The notes: generated from the letters alone by a model not told the origin. Numbered from the stretch's first letter, positions 109 through 58,032 are shown. The stretch is DNA of 58,032 bases from a virus (IMGVR_UViG_3300013947_000006:1-58032); one strand, 5' to 3'. Program-made: numbers and translations.

Positions 109-867
109 TTATCCAATCATTGCCTTAATCTTTGCAAGCAGCTCCTTGCTATCAGCAGCCTTGAGATGCTCGATGTCTACATCTGCAAGTGTCTCAGCCA
201 AGGCATCTTTAGTCTCATCAACCTTCACAACCTGTGTACGGCCTGTAGAAACTCTGATACTCTTGAGCTGCTCCTCAGCTACAAGTAATGCCTGCCAACG
301 AGGGTCCTCTTCGCTGAAGTCTGCTTTTGACTTCATGATAGACTTCTTGGACTGAACGTTGCGGATTTCTTTCTTAAGTCTGTCCTGGTCTTCCTTAAGC
401 TCTTCAAGCTGCTCAGCAGTGAAATCTACTGAACCAGACATGCGGCGTGCACCACCAGCGGACTTAACCTTGCCAGTTGCCTTTCTGATAAGGTTCTCAG
501 CAACCGCACCAGCCATCATACTCTTGTAGTTATCCATTGTCATGGCCTTACTCTTTGCACGAGAGCGCTTAGACTGCTGACTCTTCAACATACCGTCGAC
601 AGTTGCCTCATCAAGCTCTTTGATGAACTCAACATCTACAGTGTCGTAGTCAATCAACTTCGCAAGCAACGCATCCATTGCGTTGTGGTCATGCTTTGAA
701 GCTTCGAAGTCCTCACGGTACTCTTCAAGGTTGTCATTCAGCTTCTTGATGCACTCAGCGACAAGCTCATTTGCAACAGTTGTAAGCTGTGCAGTACCTG
801 CAAGATTTCTTGCGTTAGAAGTAGTTTCATTGTTTTCAGTTGCGTTGAACATTTCGTTAATAGACAT
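109..867 (-). CDS. Hypothetical coiled-coil protein (252 aa), paralog of 3884..4399
   Basis: ORF-track frame 109..897. AAAGGAG lies 6 nt upstream of the ATG at 867, so the start was moved. K/E-rich. IRNVQSKKSIMKSK block matches IRSIQSKKTLTKWL in 3884..4399. Confidence 0.75.
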   Translation of the reverse strand: MSINEMFNATENNETTSNARNLAGTAQLTTVANELVAECIKKLNDNLEEYREDFEASKHDHNAMDALLAKLIDYDTVDVEFIKELDEATVDGMLKSQQSKRSRAKSKAMTMDNYKSMMAGAVAENLIRKATGKVKSAGGARRMSGSVDFTAEQLEELKEDQDRLKKEIRNVQSKKSIMKSKADFSEEDPRWQALLVAEEQLKSIRVSTGRTQVVKVDETKDALAETLADVDIEHLKAADSKELLAKIKAMIG

Positions 868-962
868 AGTAGTCTCCTTTCTGTCCGCGTCATCCACGCG
901 GCTGCCACACTTTGCAGTGGCCTGCGTATTTGGTTAAGCTTCATTTCCTTAACTCTATACAT

Positions 963-1127: not shown

Positions 1128-1446
1128 ACGATGCTGCTACTGCATAGACTCCTGCCACAGGGCGATGCGGCGAAGGAGCGGAGCACAGTCAGGTCAAGCT
1201 AGGGTTTTAGCAGCCGCGGCGCCATCAAGTCTGACTAGGGTTTTAGCGACTGCAGTGTTGCATGGTTGAGTCGTGGCTGCAACAGTGCGAGCTAGCATGG
1301 CCTGGCCGCGACTGGGTTTTAGCAGCCGGGATAAAGTACAGTCTGGCCGCGGCTGCACGGATTGCTCACGCTGCATCGGGCCGCAGACTAGTAGATAGTC
1401 AACGGCCGCCCGGCTGAGGCTGGACTGTGCTTGGTGCAGTCGTCAA
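1128..1446 (+). repeat. GC-rich ORF-free repeat block A
   Basis: GGGTTTTAGC at 1202, 1238, 1314; GCCGC-N6-GTAGATAGTC at 1380-1400; GCTGAGGCTGG at ~1412. Homologous to blocks B and C in the same orientation. Confidence 0.85.
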
Positions 1447-1463
1447 GAATATTTCTGAAACTG

Positions 1464-1492
1464 ATAACAAACTGCAAGAAATTTGGTATAAT
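1464..1492 (+). promoter_or_regulatory. Early promoter of cassette 1
   Basis: ATAACA-17 nt-TATAAT with extended -10 TGGTATAAT; upstream A/T-rich agaatattt box shared with the next two promoters. Confidence 0.6.
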
Positions 1493-1539
1493 ATAATTGT
1501 AAGAAAGATAGAAAACAAATTTGAAAGTGAGGTATGGAT

Positions 1540-2166
1540 ATGAATTACAATGTAATTTCCCACAACTATGAAAACACTGGCGGTCACTGCATGATAAGTG
1601 TATTTGAGGTATGGCTTCCGGATGAAAACAGAACAGTGTTTGTCAACGTCGGTGAAGAGTACTGTACGATTACTACAGTCAACCATATCATGAGTGACCT
1701 TGAGATTGACGACTTCGACAAGATTACAGTCGCAACACTGAACTACAAAGAGTCTGATGACTGTACAGTTACTAACGAATACTTCGAGCTGTGTAGATAC
1801 TGCTTGTTTGAGTATTTGAAGAAAGACTGCAAGTATATGGGTTACACTGAGTCACTTCCGTTTGCATGGTTGCTGCCAATGTACCAGCAGCAAATCAGCG
1901 ACTTAGAGCGACAGTTCGTTGAGGATGAATGTGGCGACTGCTTTGACACAGACGGCTATCATGTGGCTGTACCAACAGAAGACGGTGAGCGAGAAGTGAC
2001 CGAAGTTATTCCACAGCATAAAACATTACAGCAGACTCTGGCGGCTTGCTTGTACCGCTTGCAGTCAACATATGAATGTAACAATGAAGTGATGGACGCG
2101 GATGACCTTGGTGACTTACTTACAACCATTGAAGATGTGAAGTACTACATGACAACTGAAGACTAA
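1540..2166 (+). CDS. Hypothetical acidic Cys-containing early protein (208 aa)
   Basis: AAGTGAGG 7 nt before ATG 1540 (the ORF-track ATG 1534 is too close to the RBS); own promoter and own terminator; D/E-rich. Confidence 0.75.
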   Translation: MNYNVISHNYENTGGHCMISVFEVWLPDENRTVFVNVGEEYCTITTVNHIMSDLEIDDFDKITVATLNYKESDDCTVTNEYFELCRYCLFEYLKKDCKYMGYTESLPFAWLLPMYQQQISDLERQFVEDECGDCFDTDGYHVAVPTEDGEREVTEVIPQHKTLQQTLAACLYRLQSTYECNNEVMDADDLGDLLTTIEDVKYYMTTED

Positions 2167-2175
2167 GAGGATGCG

Positions 2176-2199
2176 GCGGCGATGAGTCGCCGTATTTTT
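2176..2199 (+). terminator. Rho-independent terminator of cassette 1
   Basis: cggcga-tgag-tcgccg hairpin followed by tattttt. Confidence 0.65.
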
Positions 2200-2206
2200 C
2201 TACGTA

Positions 2207-2412
2207 TAGCGCGGACGCGGCGTTGCCAGGCTGCGACTGGGTTTTAGCCGCCGTGGCCTGAGGCCGTTAAGCTGTGACTGGGTTTTAGCAGCCAGCCGCG
2301 ATTTGACAAGCTGAGGCTGGGTTTTAGCCGCGGCGATACGACGTTGCCAAACTGTGACCGTCCACAGGATAGTAGATAGTCTCGCGCTGACTAGCTGAGG
2401 CTGAACGACATG
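2207..2412 (+). repeat. GC-rich ORF-free repeat block B
   Basis: GGGTTTTAGC at 2239, 2280, 2319 (spacing 41 and 39 bp); TCCAC-N6-GTAGATAGTC at 2361-2381; GCTGAGGCTG at ~2393. Confidence 0.85.
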
Positions 2413-2446
2413 ACAATGTAGCCATAGAATATTTTTCCAAAACCTA

Positions 2447-2475
2447 TTTACAACTGCGAAAGAATATGGTATAAT
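2447..2475 (+). promoter_or_regulatory. Early promoter of cassette 2
   Basis: TTTACA-17 nt-TATAAT, extended -10 TGGTATAAT, upstream gaatatttttccaaaacc A/T tract. Confidence 0.75.
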
Positions 2476-2506
2476 ATCTATAGAATAAAGAAAGGAGCTA
2501 ATCAAT

Positions 2507-2818
2507 ATGAACTTTACTATCAATGAAAACTCTGCAATGACTATCGTCAACCTTATTGCGTATGAGGACTACGCTCGCGTCAAAAGACGCTACATGAACG
2601 CGGGTATCAAACGCAGACCTACATTTGAGGAATTCTATGCGGAATGTGCCAAGACTTTGGAAATGGATATTCTTCCACGTGATGCATGGCATTGCGGCTA
2701 TGAGTTTGTAGCTGACCTCTTCGATGACAATGAAAAGAACGGTACGCCATGTGACGAAGAGGCACGCTTCAATCAGAACGTAAGCGAATTGCTTGCAATG
2801 TTCCACAATAGAAAATAA
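2507..2818 (+). CDS. Hypothetical early protein (103 aa)
   Basis: AAAGGAG RBS, own consensus promoter and terminator. Confidence 0.75.
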   Translation: MNFTINENSAMTIVNLIAYEDYARVKRRYMNAGIKRRPTFEEFYAECAKTLEMDILPRDAWHCGYEFVADLFDDNEKNGTPCDEEARFNQNVSELLAMFHNRK

Positions 2819-2823
2819 CAACA

Positions 2824-2860
2824 AGCTGCACGGCAAGTAATTGCCGTGCAGCTTTAGAAT
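2824..2860 (+). terminator. Rho-independent terminator of cassette 2
   Basis: 13-bp stem agctgcacggcaa / ttgccgtgcagct, loop gtaa, then T-rich tract. Confidence 0.7.
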
Positions 2861-2876
2861 ATTTTTCAAAAACCTA

Positions 2877-2905
2877 TTTACAACTGTGCCTGGATATGCT
2901 ATAAT
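2877..2905 (+). promoter_or_regulatory. Early promoter of cassette 3
   Basis: TTTACA-17 nt-TATAAT; near-identical upstream box to promoter 2447-2475. Confidence 0.75.
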
Positions 2906-2969
2906 AAGTATAACAGATAAAGAATAAATAAAATCTACAGTGTCTGTTCTGTAGTAGAAGGAGTAGCTT

Positions 2970-3182
2970 ATGATAGTTTACGATACTAAGGGAGGCGCTC
3001 AGCCTAAGGCAGCCGAAAAGTTTATTGAGGATGCTTGGTCATTTCTTAGCAAACAGGATAGCACAGAGGGTTGTAATGTTACTATCACTATAGAGGACTT
3101 GACGTTAGTAGCTTATGACAATGCACAGTTTATGCAAAGCTTGCTAGATGCTGTAAAAGCATATAAGGAGGACATTGATTGA
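2970..3182 (+). CDS. Hypothetical early protein (70 aa)
   Basis: GAAGGAG RBS; own promoter and terminator. Confidence 0.7.
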   Translation: MIVYDTKGGAQPKAAEKFIEDAWSFLSKQDSTEGCNVTITIEDLTLVAYDNAQFMQSLLDAVKAYKEDID

Positions 3183-3190
3183 TAAGAAGC

Positions 3191-3221
3191 TGCACGGCAA
3201 ATACTTGCCGTGCATTTCTTT
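3191..3221 (+). terminator. Rho-independent terminator of cassette 3
   Basis: tgcacggcaa-atac-ttgccgtgca hairpin followed by tttcttt; stem sequence related to terminator 2824-2860. Confidence 0.75.
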
Positions 3222-3229
3222 ACCTCTAA

Positions 3230-3435
3230 AGTGCAGTGGCGACGTGGCCAAGCTGCGACTGGGTTTTAGCGGCCGCTGCGCGGCTTTGCCAAGCCATGAC
3301 TGGGTTTTAGCGGCCGTGGCACATCTATTGCATGGCCGCGGCTGGGCTGCGTACGCAGCAGAACAAACGTTCCACTGGCTAGTAGATAGTCTGGCACTGT
3401 CCGGCTGTGGCTGGGCCGCGGCTGCGGCGATGTGC
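3230..3435 (+). repeat. GC-rich ORF-free repeat block C
   Basis: GGGTTTTAGC at 3261 and 3302 (41-bp spacing) plus a degenerate third unit ~3344; TCCAC-N6-GTAGATAGTC at 3371-3391; GGCTGTGGCTGG after it. Confidence 0.85.
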
Positions 3436-3467
3436 AAAAGAAAAGACCCGGTCTTTCGACCAGGTCT
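3436..3467 (-). terminator. Terminator of the leftward operon 4399->3473 (bidirectional hairpin)
   Basis: agacccggtc-tttc-gaccaggtct hairpin; on the minus strand it is followed by ttttcttttg. Confidence 0.7.
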
Positions 3468-3472
3468 CTCAT

Positions 3473-3700
3473 TTATTCCTGTCTATACTCAGCAGCAGCT
3501 TTTTCTAAGTCGGCCTCACATTCCTTCAAAGCATTTTCATGCTCCTCAAGTTCTTCTCTTAATCTTTTGAGAATATCTTCGGCCCTTTCATCCTCGCTTG
3601 GCTCAATCAATTCTACCAAGGTCTTTTTGTAGTCTATTTCCTCTTTGATGGCCTGTAATCTCATACCATGGAAGAAAGCCACACTCGCATCCTTTTTCAT
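3473..3700 (-). CDS. Hypothetical small acidic coiled-coil protein (75 aa)
   Basis: GGAGGG RBS before ATG at 3700 (internal Met of ORF 3473..3739); ATGA overlap with the upstream 44-aa ORF. Confidence 0.65.
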   Translation of the reverse strand: MKKDASVAFFHGMRLQAIKEEIDYKKTLVELIEPSEDERAEDILKRLREELEEHENALKECEADLEKAAAEYRQE

Positions 3701-3831
3701 TTCACACCCTCCATTTTCTTGAGCATCTTTTCTGTGCATCTGTCTATCTGCTTCGAAGCCTTATCTACAATGGCCTCTTGCCTTTTAGCTAACCTCTGTA
3801 GGTCCTTTAGGTTTTTGAATAACCTTTTCAT
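3697..3831 (-). CDS. Hypothetical small basic protein (44 aa; below the ORF-track cutoff)
   Basis: Hand-translated MKRLFKNLKDLQRLAKRQEAIVDKASKQIDRCTEKMLKKMEGVK; AAGGAGG 6 nt upstream; stop overlaps the next start (ATGA). Confidence 0.5.
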   Translation of the reverse strand: MKRLFKNLKDLQRLAKRQEAIVDKASKQIDRCTEKMLKKMEGVK

Positions 3832-3883
3832 GCCGTACCTCCTTATTAGAAGGGGACCGGCCGGTCTGACCGGTCCCTTAGTC

Positions 3884-4399
3884 TTACATCAAGCTCTTAA
3901 GCAATTCTACAATTCTTTCCTGACTTAAGTTGCCTGAACTTTCAATTGTATCAATGATAGTCTGTACATCGGTTTTTCTAACATACTCATTATCAACCGG
4001 TTTTGTAGACTCTCTTCTTTCGATGAGCATTTTTTCAATCTCACAGGCTTTTCTATACTCATCATTATCACCCTCAACATCTGTCAACCATTTGGTCAAT
4101 GTCTTTTTTGACTGGATGGAACGGATGGCCTTTATAGTCTCATCATAATCAAGCTGGTCAACATCTTCCTGTGTGTACATTGTTACAGGCTTTTCTTTAG
4201 GGTCAAGTAACTGGCGTACCTCTTTTAAGACCTGCTCATATTTTACTGTATTAGTCATCTCTTCCTCGTAGGTCTTTTTGCCCTTCTGTTTTTTAAGTCT
4301 GCACTTGAGGGACTGCACCCTTTTAAGTTCCTTCGCTACTGCCTCCAGGTCATTGTTGAACTTTTCTGCTACCTCTTCAATTCTTGTCATGTCTGTCAT
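3884..4399 (-). CDS. Hypothetical protein (171 aa), paralog of 109..867
   Basis: GTGAGGAAA RBS; shares the IRxxQSKKxxxK block and acidic flanks with 109..867. Confidence 0.75.
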   Translation of the reverse strand: MTDMTRIEEVAEKFNNDLEAVAKELKRVQSLKCRLKKQKGKKTYEEEMTNTVKYEQVLKEVRQLLDPKEKPVTMYTQEDVDQLDYDETIKAIRSIQSKKTLTKWLTDVEGDNDEYRKACEIEKMLIERRESTKPVDNEYVRKTDVQTIIDTIESSGNLSQERIVELLKSLM

Positions 4400-4457: not shown

Positions 4458-4486
4458 ATTATATCATACTTTTTGGAATTTGTAAA
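4458..4486 (-). promoter_or_regulatory. Sigma-A consensus promoter (proximal) for 4399->3473 operon
   Basis: Minus strand TTTACA-17 nt-TATAAT with TGA extended -10. Confidence 0.7.
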
Positions 4487-4558: not shown

Positions 4559-4587
4559 ATTATATCATGGATTTTGGAATTTGTAAA
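4559..4587 (-). promoter_or_regulatory. Sigma-A consensus promoter (distal tandem copy)
   Basis: Minus strand TTTACA-17 nt-TATAAT; part of a ~75-bp direct repeat of the 4427-4500 segment. Confidence 0.65.
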
Positions 4588-5158
4588 TAGTTTCTTTCAA
4601 AAAAGTTGCACAAAGAATTAGACAAATTCCTATGCAATTTGACAGAACATTTGCTCTGTGCATACCACCCAAAAATTGCGCCGGATTTCTGTGCATTTTG
4701 TCAGGGCCTTAGCGCGGTGGCGCTTGCACAAGTCAACTTTACCAAAAGTAAACAAATAAAAGAAAGCACAAGGTCTAACATAATCGCAGCATCCCAGCCT
4801 AAATGAGACCCAGCATCCCGACGCCACGTAGTCGCCTTCGTTACTGTGTCAATTAGATAGTCCAAAGATTACAGAAAGCCATGTGTAGTTACAGAAGTGA
4901 CCTTTTCCGGCAAAAATCTGGAAGAAGGGTAGATAAACTGGAAAGAAAATAATTATTTTGTTTATTATACGCGTTAATATTGTAAAATTTAACCTGCAGC
5001 GTGTACTTAGTACTTGTAACGAGCCCGTGAGCATCCCCGAAGAGATTTATAAGGGTATGTATTACGAACGTGTTGCGTGTAAGGCCTTTTTAAGGAAAAA
5101 TCTACTCTTTCTCTCGATTTCGCTGACTATTGGATAACACTTGTAGCTATACACGGCA

Positions 5159-5194: not shown

Positions 5195-6019
5195 ATGATG
5201 GGAGACCAGGAGCTTATGCGCCCCGGCGGCGAGGACACGCCTCAGCTTATGGTGCATTGTCCAAGATGTGGTCAATTCAAACCTGCTCATCATATTGACA
5301 AGCACCTCTGCGTTGACTGTGCGAATGCTGAGAATACGCGAGTGACCTACTATAGGCAACACCAGGATGATTGGATAGCGAATGCCAAGGAGAATGGTAT
5401 TGACCTTTGGTCGCAGCAGCCCGGCGAGACACAGTGGGAGTTCACAGTCTGGACAGCTTATAGAGACTCGTATCCCGGAAAGAAGCCTACATATGGCGAT
5501 GTAGCTCGTCAGCTTAATACTACCTACAACTCTGTCAAGAAGATTGCACAGCGTTGGTCATTCCAGTTGCGTATGCAGGCTTGGATGAAGTATTGCGATG
5601 ACATCACGCTACTGCAGCGCAGGCAAGAAATCCTGGATATGAATAAGGACCATGTAGATATGGCGGCTAGGTTGCGCTCGAAGCTCAGCACTGCTATTGA
5701 CATGATTGACCCGATGTCGCTTAAGCCTGGCGAGATTGCTTCCCTTGCTAAATTAGCAGCAGACATGGAACGCAAAGCTCGTACTGACACTATTGCTCAG
5801 GAAGAGATGCGTCGCGATGCTATGGTTGATACAGAGAACCCAGACATCAAGAAGAGTCCTACAAAGCAGGCTGATTTGAGCGAGGTAGTCGGAATACTCC
5901 TTAAGGCAGGGGCCCTTGGTGACATCACACAGATTGGTGTTCGCCAGACCAAGACAACCGAAGTCGCACTTGTAGATGCCGATGGCAACTCATCCAGTGT
6001 GACAATGGATGATGAGTAA
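5195..6019 (+). CDS. terS: Terminase small subunit (putative)
   Basis: First gene of the late operon, upstream of HNH and terL; HTH-like TYGDVARQLNTTYNSVKKIAQRW; N-terminal CPRCG...CVDC ribbon. Largely a positional call. Confidence 0.6.
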   Translation: MMGDQELMRPGGEDTPQLMVHCPRCGQFKPAHHIDKHLCVDCANAENTRVTYYRQHQDDWIANAKENGIDLWSQQPGETQWEFTVWTAYRDSYPGKKPTYGDVARQLNTTYNSVKKIAQRWSFQLRMQAWMKYCDDITLLQRRQEILDMNKDHVDMAARLRSKLSTAIDMIDPMSLKPGEIASLAKLAADMERKARTDTIAQEEMRRDAMVDTENPDIKKSPTKQADLSEVVGILLKAGALGDITQIGVRQTKTTEVALVDADGNSSSVTMDDE

Positions 6020-6035: not shown

Positions 6036-6608
6036 ATGGGCAAGAGTCGTAACACGAGGATGTACGGCACTTATCCGTCTGAAACATTTAAGGAGCACGG
6101 TCAACTCTTTCGTCGCTGTGTATTTTGCGGCGAGGTAAAGCCTATTACAGACTTTCCTCGTAATGGCACAGATAAGAAAGGCCGTCCTGAATGGAGACAG
6201 GATTGTAAGTGCTGCTACAATATCCGTAGGAAAGAAAACAGAACAAAGAAGAAGCACTCTGACTTTATTGGTGGACAGAAACGCCGTGGTGAGGAAAATC
6301 CAGAGTTCACTCATCAGGAGTGGAAAGAAGCATTGATTTTCTTCGGCGGAGAATGTGCTTATTGCGGATGCACTCCGCGTAAGGGTCAGCGAATGACTCG
6401 TGACCACCTTGAACCGGTTAGCGAGGGTGGTCGTACCATTCAGAGTAACATCGTACCGGCATGCCAGTCATGTAACAGCTCTAAAGGTGCTGAGGACTTC
6501 AAAGACTGGTTTATGAAGCAGCCATTCTTTAGTCAGGAGAGACTTAACAGAATATTTAAGTGGCGCACTATTATCCGACAGGTAGAAGGAGGTGTTAAGA
6601 ATGATTAG
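6036..6608 (+). CDS. HNH endonuclease (packaging-associated)
   Basis: CAYCG...DHLEPVSEGGRTIQSNIVPACQSCNSSKG HNH motif; N-terminal CVFCGEVKP...CKCCY zinc ribbon; sits between terS and terL. Confidence 0.85.
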   Translation: MGKSRNTRMYGTYPSETFKEHGQLFRRCVFCGEVKPITDFPRNGTDKKGRPEWRQDCKCCYNIRRKENRTKKKHSDFIGGQKRRGEENPEFTHQEWKEALIFFGGECAYCGCTPRKGQRMTRDHLEPVSEGGRTIQSNIVPACQSCNSSKGAEDFKDWFMKQPFFSQERLNRIFKWRTIIRQVEGGVKND

Positions 6609-6938: not shown

Positions 6939-8306
6939 ATGAGTATAGACTTGAATGGAATTGACCTGCAACAGCTACAGGGAATTTTAACGCCACGTCT
7001 GACTAAGTACATCCCTTATGACCCTACTCCTAAACAGCGAGCTTTTTTACTTATGAATGATACGAAAGAGATTTTGTATGGTGGAGCAGCAGGTGGAGGT
7101 AAGTCTGTAGCACAGCTTATGGCAGCGTTACAGTATGTAGATATACCAGGCTACTCTGCTATACTTTTTCGTAAGACATATGCTGACTTATCTTTGCCTG
7201 GTGCATTGATAGATATGTCTAAACAATGGCTGATGCCTTTTGTTGAAAGTAAGGAAGTTAAGTGGTCTGAAAAAGAAAAGCAGTACGTTTTTCCTTCAGG
7301 TGCCACACTGAACTTTGGTTATCTTGAGTCAGCTAACGATTGCTATCGTTACCAAGGTGCTGAATTTCAGTATATAGGAATGGATGAGGTTACGCACATA
7401 GACCCTGCTAACTACAGGTATCTATTCTCACGTTTACGTAAGCCAAAGACATTGCAAGTACCTTTAAGGTTTAGAGCCACAGCAAACCCTGGTGGACAGT
7501 TTGGTGAGTACTATTACCAAAGATTTTTTGTTGAGGGTAAAGATGCTGGGCGTATTTTTATAGGTGCAGGTATCGATGATAACCCGTATCTTGATGCTGA
7601 GGCCTACAAAGAGTCACTTGCAGAGTTGGACCCTATAGAACGTGAGCGTCTATTAAACGGTAACTGGGAAATCAAAGCATCTGGTGATATGCTTAATAGG
7701 CATTGGTTTACTATAGTACCTGCGTCTGAAGTTCCTACTGCTGTTAGAAGAGTGCGATACTGGGATATGGCGTCTACAGACCCTAAGAAGCGTAAAGGTA
7801 AGAATAAGCGAGAGCCTGACTGGACAGTTGGTTTTAAGCTTGCACACTACCAGGGTATGTATTGGATTGAAGACATTATACGAGAGCAAAAAATGCCTGG
7901 TGACCTGGAGAAGCTTGTAGGTGAAACAGCGCAGGCAGATGGATATGATGTAGCGATACGTATGGAAGAAGAACCAGGTTCTTCTGGTAAGATTACTACT
8001 GACCATTATGCAAGGCATGTACTGCAAGGATATGACTTTCTTGGGGTATCCTCTACAGGTTCTAAGGTTGAAAGAGCCAGAACAGCATCAGCAGCAGCTC
8101 AAAGAGGTAATGTGCACATTGTACAAGGATGTAGAAACATTCTGCCCTTTCTTGATGAGGCTGATTTATTTCCATATGGAATACATGACGATACAATAGA
8201 TGGTTTCTCTGGTGCATTTAACTACTTCAGGGGAGCCACAGTACCAAGAGCACCTTCAGGAATTAAAAAATCTGGAGGTTCTTACTGGACAAAATTTAGG
8301 AGGTGA
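6939..8306 (+). CDS. terL: Terminase large subunit
   Basis: Walker A GGAAGGGKS, Walker B-like YIGMDEV, C-terminal nuclease acidic motif GIHDDTIDG; 455 aa. Confidence 0.9.
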   Translation: MSIDLNGIDLQQLQGILTPRLTKYIPYDPTPKQRAFLLMNDTKEILYGGAAGGGKSVAQLMAALQYVDIPGYSAILFRKTYADLSLPGALIDMSKQWLMPFVESKEVKWSEKEKQYVFPSGATLNFGYLESANDCYRYQGAEFQYIGMDEVTHIDPANYRYLFSRLRKPKTLQVPLRFRATANPGGQFGEYYYQRFFVEGKDAGRIFIGAGIDDNPYLDAEAYKESLAELDPIERERLLNGNWEIKASGDMLNRHWFTIVPASEVPTAVRRVRYWDMASTDPKKRKGKNKREPDWTVGFKLAHYQGMYWIEDIIREQKMPGDLEKLVGETAQADGYDVAIRMEEEPGSSGKITTDHYARHVLQGYDFLGVSSTGSKVERARTASAAAQRGNVHIVQGCRNILPFLDEADLFPYGIHDDTIDGFSGAFNYFRGATVPRAPSGIKKSGGSYWTKFRR

Positions 8307-29149: not shown

Positions 29150-29395
29150 TAAAAATAGGGAATATATATAAGGAAATAAATATAAATAAGAAAAAAGCCC
29201 AAATATCAATATTCAATCAAATTATCTTATTTTTTAACTTTCTTAACATTCTTAACCTTCTTAACTTTTTGGCAACTTTTGTTCGGTTTTCAATTTTCAT
29301 TTTGAAAAACTTAAAAACAAATCCTTATAGACGAGTTTCGAGGGAGTACGTCAAAAAGTTAGGAAGGTTAAGAAAGTTGAGATGTTAAGAAAATG
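29150..29395 (+). repeat. AT-rich iteron element, copy 1 (inverted arms of 9-bp TTCTTAAC units)
   Basis: Left arm ~29231-29271 (TTTTTAACt TTCTTAACa TTCTTAACc TTCTTAACt). Right arm 29352-29392 is its imperfect reverse complement. ~80-bp A/T spacer. Homologous to 56965-57325 in the opposite orientation. Confidence 0.85.
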
Positions 29396-29470
29396 CCAAG
29401 GGCCTTGCTCACGCCAGGTCGCTGGCAGCCCCGCAAAGGACACCTGTAGAAAATCCGTAAGGAAAGGGGG

Positions 29471-29955: not shown

Positions 29956-30189
29956 TTCTCACAGTATGAGGTGTAGTTGTTACACCTCAGCAATCGGCGT
30001 GTGTTCTTAGAATGCTCGCCGATTGTTAAGAGCCCATAAGGTCTCTAGCTGGTAAAGACGCGGGACCTCTTACTTTATGGACTCTTAACAGTCGGTGAAC
30101 AACTTCACAGACTAGTAGCGCCGCGGCATATGATTGAGTGTAGTTCATCCCTACTTCAACACAAGTGTATGCCACGGCACTCCTTCTAT

Positions 30190-30263
30190 GGCGGGGTAGA
30201 GCAGCTTGGTAGCTCGCTGGGTTCATAACCCAGAGGTCGGTGGTTCAAATCCATCTCCCGCAA
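30190..30263 (+). tRNA. tRNA-Met (CAT), initiator-type
   Basis: Hand-folded cloverleaf: G1:A72 mismatch, A11:U24, three G:C pairs closing the anticodon stem (CTGGG-TTCATAA-CCCAG). Very close to the E. coli tRNA-fMet layout. No encoded CCA. Confidence 0.85.
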
Positions 30264-30360
30264 TTATTGTCCTGGCAGACGAAACCAAAGTAAAGGACCG
30301 GATACATAAATGCGTTCATTGGGACATGACAGTTATGAAGCTGGGAAAGCTGTCAATTAT

Positions 30361-30433
30361 GGGGTATTAGCTCAGTTGGGAGAGCGCCTGCTTTGCAAGC
30401 AGGAAGTCAAGGGTTCAAGCCCCTTATGCTCCA
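30361..30433 (+). tRNA. tRNA-Ala (TGC)
   Basis: Cloverleaf with G3:U70 identity pair, anticodon loop TTTGCAA, T-loop TTCAAGC. Confidence 0.9.
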
Positions 30434-30437
30434 CTGT

Positions 30438-30513
30438 GTACTTGTAGCTCAACGGATAGAGCGCTCGGCTACGAACCGAGAGGTTGGGGGTTCGAAACCC
30501 TTCAAGTGCACCA
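30438..30513 (+). tRNA. tRNA-Arg (ACG), CCA encoded
   Basis: Acceptor gtacttg/caagtgc, D-arm gctc-aacggata-gagc, anticodon loop CTACGAA, T-loop TTCGAAA, 3' ACCA. Confidence 0.85.
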
Positions 30514-33012: not shown

Positions 33013-33579
33013 ATGCAGGATGACATCAATGCTACGATAGCCAAGCATCTTGGTCTTATCTTTAAGCAGCTTAATAAGTTCAATCTTGCTAAGGACCCTG
33101 AAGCAGAGAGTATTGGTTATGAGGCGCTTTACAATGCAATATTAACGTATGACCAAAACAAGAAAGTACGATTTTCTACATACGCTTCAGTGTGTATCTA
33201 CAATGCTTTGGGGTCATACGTAAGAACACAAAACAAACAGCGCCAGTTAGAAGTAATCTCTTACAACAATGTTGCTTACTCAGAAGATGGCACAGACCAT
33301 GAGTTTGTAGATTTTCTTTCAACACCTTCTGATGTAGAGCAGGACTTTATGAAGAAAGAACTACACAGGATTGTAAGGGAAGAATTTCAGAAACAGTATG
33401 ATACACTGACAAATAAGAAGCACCAAGTTATCATATCACTGTGGCGCGACTCAGAATATGAGGCTTCCATGGTATCGATAGCGAAACAAGCAGGCGTTTC
33501 TCAACCATATGTCAGTCAAGTCATAAATAGCTTCAAATTTAATTTAAGAAAGAAACTGGAGGAGCATTACTATGATTGA
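33013..33579 (+). CDS. Sigma-70 family RNA polymerase sigma factor (regions 2 and 4 only)
   Basis: Region 2-like YEALYNAILTYDQNKKVRFSTYASVCIYNAL; region 4 HTH SIAKQAGVSQPYVSQVINSF; 188 aa. Confidence 0.8.
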   Translation: MQDDINATIAKHLGLIFKQLNKFNLAKDPEAESIGYEALYNAILTYDQNKKVRFSTYASVCIYNALGSYVRTQNKQRQLEVISYNNVAYSEDGTDHEFVDFLSTPSDVEQDFMKKELHRIVREEFQKQYDTLTNKKHQVIISLWRDSEYEASMVSIAKQAGVSQPYVSQVINSFKFNLRKKLEEHYYD

Positions 33580-56937: not shown

Positions 56938-56964
56938 TAATAAATATGGCCTTATTTTCTAACA

Positions 56965-57325
56965 AATATTATTTTCTTAACATTCTTAACATTCTCAACC
57001 TTTTGACGTACTCCCACTATTCGACCATCTATATAAAAACAAAAAATAAAATTTGTTTTTGTGTCGGTGAAATAAAATATGGGGTTGTCAAAAGGTTGAG
57101 AATGTTAAGAATGTTAAGAAAATTAAAAAGTTGAGAAAATGTAAGGATGTTGGGCTGTGACTATGCTAGAATGCTACACAGTGTCACTGCGCCCCGGTGC
57201 TGGTAACTACTAGACTGTTCAAAAGTGGTAAGAACTACAGAATATTGAAAAAATTTGAAATTGGGCCAAAACTATTTATTATTTATATCCTTATATATAT
57301 CTTTATTTTTTCAAATTTTGTACTG
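56965..57325 (-). repeat. AT-rich iteron element, copy 2 (inverted relative to copy 1; carries a ~100-bp insertion)
   Basis: Perfect 36-bp inverted arms 56972-57007 / 57087-57122 (ttttcttaacattcttaacattctcaaccttttgac), 79-bp A/T spacer. TTTTGACGTACTCCC (57001) is the reverse complement of 29342-29356; TCCTTATATATAT (57288) is the reverse complement of 29162-29174. Confidence 0.85.
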
Positions 57326-57399: not shown

Positions 57400-58032
57400 C
57401 CGTGATGCATGCGAACAGCATAAAATCCGCCAGGCCTGACGTCGCTCGGGTCGACGCGGCGATGAGTCCAGTGGACACAGAGTAGTTCTAGACTAGTCTT
57501 TCTAAGCCAAACAAGCTCCTGCACGGATACCAGACATTCTGACATACAGCGTCGCGGCGTCCCAGGGCTGAGTCGGGCAAGAGGATTGTAGATACTCAGG
57601 CAGTAAGTCACAGTGCCGCCCGGCCACGGCTCTACTTCGTAAAAAGAAGTGCAGCCACAGCCAGACGAAGCAAGGGTTTTAGCAGTGGTGGCGCAGCGGC
57701 GCATGGTCGCAGCAGCACTATTACAACTGGACCAGCACGGATACCAGGCTGAACCCACTTTGTGCAGCGCCGCCACGACCCTGACTGACCATAGCCGACA
57801 GGGGTTTTAGCCGCCGCATCCCGGCCTCCGTACGGCCGGAGCTGACGTCAGTTCTACAAGCTAGTAGATTATAGCTGGTCCAATCCAATCCTGTACCACG
57901 GCGGCCCGGGCCCACTTGCTTACGCGGAACTTGACTTCCACAAGCTAGTAGATGTCCCGGCCAGGCGGCGCTTGAGCCAGGCTGCACCAAAGGGCATAAC
58001 GAAACCCAGCTGGCTGACAAGACCAACTGGGT
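57400..58032 (+). repeat. GC-rich ORF-free repeat block D (continues into bases 1-46 across the junction)
   Basis: GGGTTTTAGC at 57674 and 57802; CAAGCTAGTAGAT at 57857 and 57941; GCACGGATACCAG at 57521 and 57735; palindrome AGACTAGTCT at 57490. Confidence 0.8.

Follow-up and report, generated by a model that had tools for sequence, protein, structure and literature searches.

The early-gene region of the phage genome IMGVR_UViG_3300013947_000006:1-58032 is punctuated by blocks of G+C-rich DNA built on tandem copies of an exact 10-nucleotide core, GGGTTTTAGC. The stretch in question runs from 1128 to 3435; by the window we mean the whole of the viral DNA analyzed, 58,032 nucleotides (nt) in length. 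We conclude that the blocks are cis-acting DNA elements specific to one phage family, not genes. The explanation that we favor, with a probability of roughly 45%, is that they act at the level of DNA, as arrays to which a protein binds and at which crossovers also take place. An earlier note on this DNA had described three blocks, A, B and C. All three are real, but a fourth, block D, brings two further cores. The four blocks are as follows.

1128..1446, + strand, block A: cores at 1202, 1238 and 1314; TTGCTCACGC at 1362-1371; CTAGTAGAT at 1388-1396; GCTGAGGCTG at 1413-1422
2207..2412, + strand, block B: cores at 2239, 2280 and 2319; ATAGTAGAT at 2369-2377; GCTGAGGCTG at 2310 and 2394
3230..3435, + strand, block C: cores at 3261 and 3302; CTAGTAGAT at 3379-3387; GCTGTGGCTG at 3404-3413
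57400..58032, running on into 78-85, + strand, block D: cores at 57674 and 57802; longer than the other three and the most widely conserved

The window contains ten copies of GGGTTTTAGC, compared to 0.09 expected, and all ten lie on the + strand and inside the four blocks; the eight positions listed in the earlier note are exact. When the window was scanned for one-mismatch variants, these occurred outside the blocks at chance level. The blocks have a G+C content of about 57-59%, compared to 42.5% in the remaining genome, and repeat analysis showed that they are homologous to one another in the same orientation, in agreement with what had been claimed. Cores are spaced, start to start, by 36 and 76 nt in block A, by 41 and 39 nt in block B and by 41 nt in block C, which also holds a decayed third unit at about 3335-3350. 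In the tail of these blocks, GTAGATAGTC is found at 1391, 2372 and 3382, and GCTGAGGCTG or GCTGTGGCTG at 1413, 2394 and 3404. The TCCAC-N6 tail unit of the earlier note is present at the places given for it, except that block A reads GCCGC, not TCCAC, before GTAGAT. The tail is incomplete in some blocks: block B is without TTGCTCACGC and has ATAGTAGAT in place of CTAGTAGAT. Blocks A and D have a further motif in common, TTGCTYACGC (at 1362 and 57916), and block D carries CTAGTAGAT at 57861 and 57945, a variant of TTGTAGAT at about 57586 and TTGCTTACGC at 57916. A small hairpin is found in block A at 1430-1447, and the 3' end of block D is a bidirectional terminator hairpin (58004-58032, identical to 49-77). 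Since positions 1-77 and 57956-58032 form an exact 77-bp terminal overlap, the window represents a circularized assembly of about 57,955 bp, and block D therefore spans an artificial junction.

To find relatives, public collections were searched for two cores lying 20-50 nt apart. The same architecture came back from some 20 contigs of IMG/VR and from 32 metagenome contigs, which gives at least 52 related loci. Two further scans of viral collections added nothing: one pattern proved too generic, and the other recovered six loci that were already in hand. In 52 loci, all 355 exact cores fall on the same strand, and the order of the motifs was unchanged. The gene adjoining the blocks has 1576 homologues in a protein collection, indicating that the phage family is abundant. 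By contrast, bacterial and archaeal genomes, taken as one per species (185,579), yielded a single related match; its contig, 1.9 kb long and phage-like, had been binned with an Oscillospiraceae metagenome-assembled genome. This result shows that the element is phage-specific and not a host repeat, and a host-derived origin was rejected on the same grounds.

An information profile over 139 aligned core contexts delimited a conserved footprint from about -14 to +14 (about 29 bp), CAAGCTGRGGCT-GGGTTTTAGC-SGC, around which the sequence is variable yet still G+C-rich. Each block has an array of one to nine direct units. Unit length has its mode at 41 nt (59 of 166 distinct units), and 62% of units measure 39-42 nt, roughly four helical turns; minor classes measure 35-36 nt (20%) and 45-48 nt. 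The units are followed by a tail which, when complete, consists of TTGCTCACGC, about 20 nt, CTAGTAGRT, about 15 nt and GCTGRGGCTG, and gives way to an A+T-rich promoter region or a terminator. Five close relatives have identical core and tail motifs, whereas the stretches between these vary freely. Motifs that stay fixed in order and orientation while their surroundings drift call for a factor that reads the sequence.

The setting of the blocks is equally regular. In the 24 loci that were mapped in detail, the order was constant. A first block and a leftward gene of about 255 amino acids are succeeded by a second block and by one to five rightward cassettes, each of which is closed by a block; a leftward gene of about 171 amino acids and then terS complete the series. 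The last block, nearest terS, is usually the richest in units (five to nine). Where both flanks were available, an extended -10 promoter was found within 250 nt downstream on the + strand for 55 of 116 blocks and on the - strand for two.

As the earlier note had held, the blocks contain no genes. Substitutions among close relatives are spread evenly over the codon phases (29/31/28 in block A, 56/55/55 in block D), indels of 1, 7, 10 and 16 nt are not multiples of three, and the open reading frames (ORFs) inside the blocks have no Pfam or PHROG match. The longest spurious ORF, in block D, has only 13 homologues, all from close relatives and of variable length. The absence of codon phase, the out-of-frame indels and the lack of protein-family matches rule out a coding sequence, and a decayed gene, for which the earlier note had suggested a check, is ruled out as well.

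In the window, the blocks occupy nearly all intergenic gaps of the early region and flank its rightward cassettes. The genes and operons concerned are these.

109..897, - strand: leftward early gene between blocks D and A, family-conserved, 252-262 amino acids, predicted to be all-helical, with no known fold
1464..3214, + strand: three rightward early cassettes, with genes at 1534-2166, 2507-2818 and 2970-3182
3473..4399, - strand: leftward early operon right of the last block, encoding 88 and 171 amino acids (the latter at 3884-4399), family-conserved, with promoters at 4458-4486 and 4559-4587

Each rightward cassette has its own extended -10 promoter of the sigma-70 type (1464-1492, 2447-2475 and 2877-2905) and its own intrinsic terminator (2176-2193, 2823-2854 and 3191-3214). 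Block D is bordered on one side by an A+T-rich region and on the other by the terminator of the leftward gene 109-897, and block A lies between the two promoters of that gene (963-991 and 1085-1113) and the rightward promoter 1464-1492. Block B separates the terminator 2176-2193 from the promoter 2447-2475, and block C separates the terminator 3191-3214 from that of the leftward operon at about 3440-3470, which was read directly from the sequence (a 9-bp stem and a GAAA loop, then TTTTCTTTT on the - strand). Blocks B and C thus lie, as had been noted, between a terminator and the next promoter or terminator. The transcriptional insulation drawn from this fits the signals flanking B and C but does not extend to every block, since D may be transcribed. 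The flanking signals vary from block to block, being divergent promoters at A, a terminator and a promoter at B and convergent terminators at C. Together with the lack of covariation described below, this makes a double-stranded DNA site the simplest reading, and upholds the earlier view of a DNA-level rather than an mRNA element.

Comparison of the loci showed that the blocks are used as recombination junctions. The rightward genes form a few families that differ between phages in number and order and are nearly always bracketed by blocks. Cassette families run 02, 03, 04 in the window, 04, 02, 03 in L265 and 02, 06, 03 in L322, and family 03 precedes 02 in L140 and L151. L138 has a hybrid block, which resembles block B of the window up to CTAGTAGATAG and block C beyond it, with the switch at CTAGTAGAT, and the two intervening cassettes are missing. 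In L265, a tail of the A type is duplicated, with one copy on each side of an extra cassette. Finally, block C has three units in L093, which is 91-95% identical to the window, and two in the window itself. The permuted cassettes, the B/C hybrid, the duplicated tail and the change in unit number between 95%-identical genomes all bear out the recombination boundaries envisaged in the earlier note. Its overall interpretation therefore stands in part: the blocks are non-coding, family-specific and recombination boundaries, but they are not all insulated.

A separate observation concerns the gene-3 cassette. It is bounded by 31-nt terminator copies, 90% identical, at 2820-2850 and 3184-3214, and is absent from L093. 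This indel at terminator repeats is of the promoter-early stem-loop (PeSL) type and is independent of the blocks.

Under the reading that we favor, the repeated cores would be sites for one sequence-specific protein, with an expected footprint of GGGTTTTAGCSGC. The most economical binder would be either of two early proteins, conserved in the family, whose genes flank the array; they are candidates by position only, and a conserved host factor would be the alternative. The resulting nucleoprotein complex at each gap might mark, insulate or later shut off the strongly transcribed early units. As long direct repeats, the blocks would also act as crossover points at which homologous recombination could delete, duplicate, insert or permute early cassettes and alter the number of units. 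The two flanking proteins are predicted to be helical and are rich in basic residues. As a side observation, the 262- and 171-amino acid proteins share a short repeated motif, (F/Y)TxE..L..D...K.IRxxQSKK (BLASTP E = 0.001).

A regulatory array of this kind would be comparable to the stoperators of Cluster A mycobacteriophages, which are single asymmetric 13-bp sites, scattered genome-wide and oriented with transcription, where a bound phage protein silences transcription. Like stoperators, the cores are short asymmetric sites present in many copies, in one orientation and in non-coding gaps. Unlike them, they stand in tandem arrays, are confined to the early region and are oriented independently of the neighboring genes.

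Several observations weigh against a protein-binding array. The conserved flanking proteins had no family or fold match in Pfam, PHROG, NCBIfam, a PDB sequence search or AlphaFold2 combined with Foldseek, and no recognizable DNA-binding fold emerged from these library and structure searches. Lineages whose adjacent protein has only 34% identity still have the same core, so that co-variation gives no hint of a binder encoded by the phage. Strict phasing of the units is lacking: 20% of them measure 35-36 bp. The sole early gap of the window without a block, the terminator-promoter junction before gene 3 (2851-2905), works without one, which means that blocks are dispensable for terminator and promoter function. 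In addition, block D, with a TATAAT-like site before it and a terminator at its end, may be transcribed and act as RNA, and the covariation tests on this block were of limited power, with eight or nine sequences that are partly very similar.

The alternative that survives best, although we consider it unlikely, is that the blocks are pure recombination linkers with no dedicated binder, which persist by second-order selection as proposed for the PeSLs of T4-type phages and owe their G+C richness to GC-biased gene conversion at a hotspot. T4-type PeSLs combine a terminator and a promoter, and recombination between copies inserts, deletes and replaces cassettes (PMC2839356, PMC4122927). The hybrid block, the duplicated tail, the permuted order and the changes in unit number would all be expected of linkers, and the PeSL-like indel at 2820-2850/3184-3214 shows that this genome shuffles at intergenic repeats generally, for which the same two papers provide a precedent. 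Homology alone, however, does not need near-invariant short motifs at fixed order and spacing amid drifting sequence, and the terminator-promoter repeats already provide it. The strict conservation of strand and position over distant lineages suggests instead that a factor reads the sequence.

The comparison with PeSLs is instructive in its own right, since these and the pre-early repeat regions of T5-like phages are the closest described systems. Both PeSLs and blocks are short conserved intergenic modules around the small early genes (non-essential in T4-type phages) of a hyperplastic region, and both recombine between copies. The variable ORFs between recombining copies that characterize PeSLs have their counterpart here in the varied cassettes, the B/C hybrid and the duplicated A-type tail. 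A PeSL, however, itself consists of a strong sigma-70-like early promoter and a stem-loop terminator, and in the window both signals lie outside the blocks. The blocks are thus an extra G+C-rich element of 200-700 bp between terminator and promoter, with a motif grammar, tandem units and a strict polarity of their own. Neither Rfam nor searches of the literature for the motif and for comparable architectures returned a described family with this sequence or grammar. This agrees with the earlier note, which knew of none; Rfam and the protein-family libraries had no match, and the literature searches made no specific find.

A second unlikely alternative is a role as RNA for all blocks or for block D at least: D would be a non-coding transcript of about 700 nt, and the others would be read-through RNA whose linear motifs bind or titrate a host or phage factor. 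Just upstream of D, GGTTTCACACGTTCGTGATACAC precedes a -10 of the TATAAT type, which reads TATAAT in the window and TATAGT in L148; this arrangement is conserved between relatives that are 72% identical, and a terminator hairpin closes the block. The homologous TTCTTAAC palindrome at 29.3 kb likewise has a strong promoter after it. Conserved A+U-rich motifs within variable G+C-rich sequence are also a pattern typical of RNA, and the inter-core segments show slightly more self-complementarity than shuffled sequence (mean z -1.0 on the + strand). The - strand gave nearly the same value (-0.8), however, and whole blocks folded alike on both strands, with z-scores of -0.5 to -2 compared to shuffled sequence. 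A test for strand asymmetry could not distinguish plus from minus, the D blocks of lineage 2 being too alike to inform.

Searches for a shared RNA structure pointed the same way. Rfam 15 gave nothing relevant at the gathering threshold or at E<=10, and a pairing scan anchored on the units gave weak signals only. The only recurrent unit helix, AGCCGCGG/CYGYGGCU, showed no covariation, its central pair being C:G in 43 cases, C:A in 41, G:A in 31 and G:G in 22. For block D, the covariation term of RNAalifold was positive, which counts against a shared structure, and in the inverted repeat GGTCGCGGCGGCG/...CGCCGCCGCGAC, the best helix of this block, four positions are mismatched in the window, three as uncompensated A:C and one as C:A. 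Furthermore, blocks A, B and C have no + strand promoter, with only weak, chance-level signal matches inside the blocks, and B and C sit after terminators.

In one version of the RNA explanation, the blocks would be decoys of a CRISPR repeat, because GTTCTACAAGCTAGTAGAT (57849-57869, block D) resembles the UCUAC-loop-GUAGAU handle of the Cas12a repeat. This likeness fails across the family, and mimicry of the Cas12a repeat was rejected. Of 105 modules, just 8 have the full 5-bp stem; GCTGC and TCCAC are the most frequent left arms, and the loop has 6 nt with an invariant CUA. The resemblance is probably coincidental. An R-loop or G-rich transcript was also dropped, as block D shows no G skew.

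The uniform orientation of the cores, 355 to 0, raises the question of polar signals for genome ends or DNA transit, such as a Chi-like stop for AddAB/RecBCD coming in from the nearby end, an injection stop or holding signal similar to T5 iss, or a signal that slows or terminates the packaging motor at cos or pac. Chi sites are short host-specific sequences, frequent and oriented in the host chromosome, that act in a single orientation with respect to a double-strand end. Relative to terL the blocks keep a single orientation in every lineage, and they are found within some 1-6 kb upstream of terS-HNH-terL, with the most units usually in the block nearest terS. The early genes with strong host-type promoters are located here, as expected of the first DNA to enter. 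T5-like pre-early regions contain conserved untranslated repeats, including a proposed injection stop signal, and T5 has nine copies of the direct repeat DRD (bioRxiv 10.1101/866236). We nevertheless hold such signals to be improbable. Uniform orientation may be mere inherited synteny, and a footprint of about 29 bp with a multi-motif tail is far more elaborate than Chi; Chi-like sub-motif bias within the phage genome was confounded by coding-strand bias. DnaA boxes (TTWTNCACA) are at chance level, with six in the window compared to 7.0 expected and no cluster in the blocks, and the arrays are absent from bacterial genomes. The nearest TerL relative found, at 44% identity, is that of Methanobacterium phage psiM2. 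This phage packages its DNA by the headful route, which would give permuted ends.

Blocks and T5-like regions are alike in that untranslated repeats lie among early genes in an internal order conserved in the family, in T5 better conserved than the neighboring ORFs. Tandem direct repeats are found in both, and the T5 function has been inferred to be cis-acting at the DNA level. They differ in that T5 has inverted repeats, palindromes and paired DnaA boxes, whereas the blocks have direct repeats only, and in that there is no sequence similarity. As an additional observation, about 550 bp of non-coding DNA of moderate G+C content lie at 4600-5150, between the leftward early promoters and terS, and are without block motifs; this is a plausible location of cos or pac.

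A more elaborate proposal, also improbable in our view and ranked after the polar signals, is a protein-guided cassette-exchange system, a functional analogue of the integron, with the blocks as recognition marks and crossover sites. A dedicated early protein, for which the two flanking helical proteins would be the candidates, would recognize the GGGTTTTAGC arrays and a switch point at CTAGTAGRT and actively drive the capture, loss and reordering of early genes, which would probably serve in host takeover or anti-defence. As in integrons with their attC sites, small, variable gene arrays in one orientation are each bounded by a recombination element, and their order is permuted. The imperfect R''-L''/L'-R' inverted repeat and the GTTRRRY core of attC, which folds as single-stranded DNA, are absent, however; the repeats in the blocks are direct, with GGGTTTTAGC as the core and no conserved pairing. 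Unlike integron cassettes, every cassette has its own promoter and terminator, and exchange looks homologous rather than site-specific. No recombinase of the IntI type or otherwise was found among the ORFs scanned.

A function as origin iterons or as a cis-acting replication enhancer, bound by an initiator or by the primase-helicase in the manner of the P4 ori/crr sets, is in our view very unlikely. Iteron and centromere arrays, such as F sopC (12 units of 43 bp), P1 incA/incC, P4 ori/crr and the dispersed centromere sites of N15, consist of tandem, co-oriented units of about 20-43 bp, each of which binds one protein and which together build a higher-order complex. The blocks share the tandem arrangement, the common orientation and the conserved core, and they too form dispersed sets. 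Block D lies 260 bp to the right of an A+T-rich palindrome (56954-57140) flanked by inverted copies of another repeat, TTCTTAAC, and the phage encodes a primase-MCM helicase, PolA, RNase H and ligase. On the other hand, no Rep, ParB or SopB homologue was found, and no Rep-type initiator gene was identified adjoining the blocks. The core is asymmetric and not an inverted repeat, every array is closed by a fixed tail that is present once, and the number of arrays follows the number of cassettes, which an origin does not require. The TTCTTAAC palindromes, a different motif, look more like an origin or operator.

Selfish miniature mobile repeats of the REP or MITE kind, spreading through intergenic DNA, would also be extragenic, G+C-rich, clustered and variable in copy number at about 40 bp per unit, but the restriction of the blocks to one region, their single orientation, their family-conserved positions and their absence from host genomes, with no transposase or RAYT-type gene and no inverted termini found, make this explanation highly improbable.

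The phage family is common in metagenomes and is without a cultured relative; contig names suggest anaerobic-digester and gut samples. For such phages the blocks provide a simple, searchable mark of the early region, and by means of the motif early-gene cassettes can be collected from metagenomes. The bracketed cassette genes are candidates for functions in host takeover or anti-defence. The recombinant blocks represent a second, independent example, after T4 PeSLs, of plastic genes organized around dedicated intergenic repeats. They also raise the question of what reads a 13-bp asymmetric core that is present in hundreds of copies family-wide and is never inverted.

Library scans of the window proteins showed a siphovirus-type genome. 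A 1377-amino acid ORF is the putative tape-measure protein, and the phage looks virulent. The following features were located among its other genes.

5195-6019: TerS, weak match
6036-6608: HNH endonuclease
6939-8306: TerL
33013-33579: sigma factor closest to the sporulation factors SigK/SigE (NCBIfam E = 1e-17)

TerL is at most 44% identical to any record, and an annotated phage collection contained no DNA match to the blocks and no protein match to the neighboring protein. The replication and nucleotide module encodes an SNF2 helicase, the ligase, the primase-MCM helicase, a YqaJ exonuclease, ThyX and NrdD, as well as PolA, RNase H, dUTPase and dCMP deaminase. At its start, a trio of tRNA genes (Met-CAT, Ala-TGC and Arg-ACG) is found at 30189-30513. 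Judged by sequence, the SigK/SigE-like sigma factor suggests that the host is a spore-forming member of the Firmicutes and that the phage directs a class of middle or late promoters.

The TTCTTAAC repeat occurs 16 times in the window, compared to 2.7 expected. Two near-identical palindromic arrays of it, at 29230-29395 and 56954-57140, bracket the replication and nucleotide-metabolism module. Each has three plus two to three inverted copies at 9-bp spacing around an A+T-rich spacer, and a TATAAT promoter-like site follows each. Single copies at 1068 and 4440 adjoin the leftward early promoters 1085-1113 and 4458-4486. This set looks like an operator set or an origin, separate from the G+C-rich blocks. 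One copy of TTGCTCACGC followed by GGTCGC is found outside the blocks, at 29405-29425, right after the 29.3-kb palindrome and upstream of the strong promoter.

The A+T-rich stretches upstream of the rightward promoters (1446-1462, 2426-2442 and 2856-2872) contain AGAATATTTCTGAAA or AGAATATTTTTCMAAA. They resemble the CodY box, AATTTTCWGAAAATT, and may serve as an UP element or be bound by a host regulator.

A role of the blocks as a restriction-site sink was rejected, as GCNGC is enriched everywhere and GATC is avoided genome-wide. GATC is nearly missing from the genome, with three copies (23257, 26569 and 43995) compared to about 163 expected. This scarcity suggests strong avoidance of a GATC-specific restriction system of the host.

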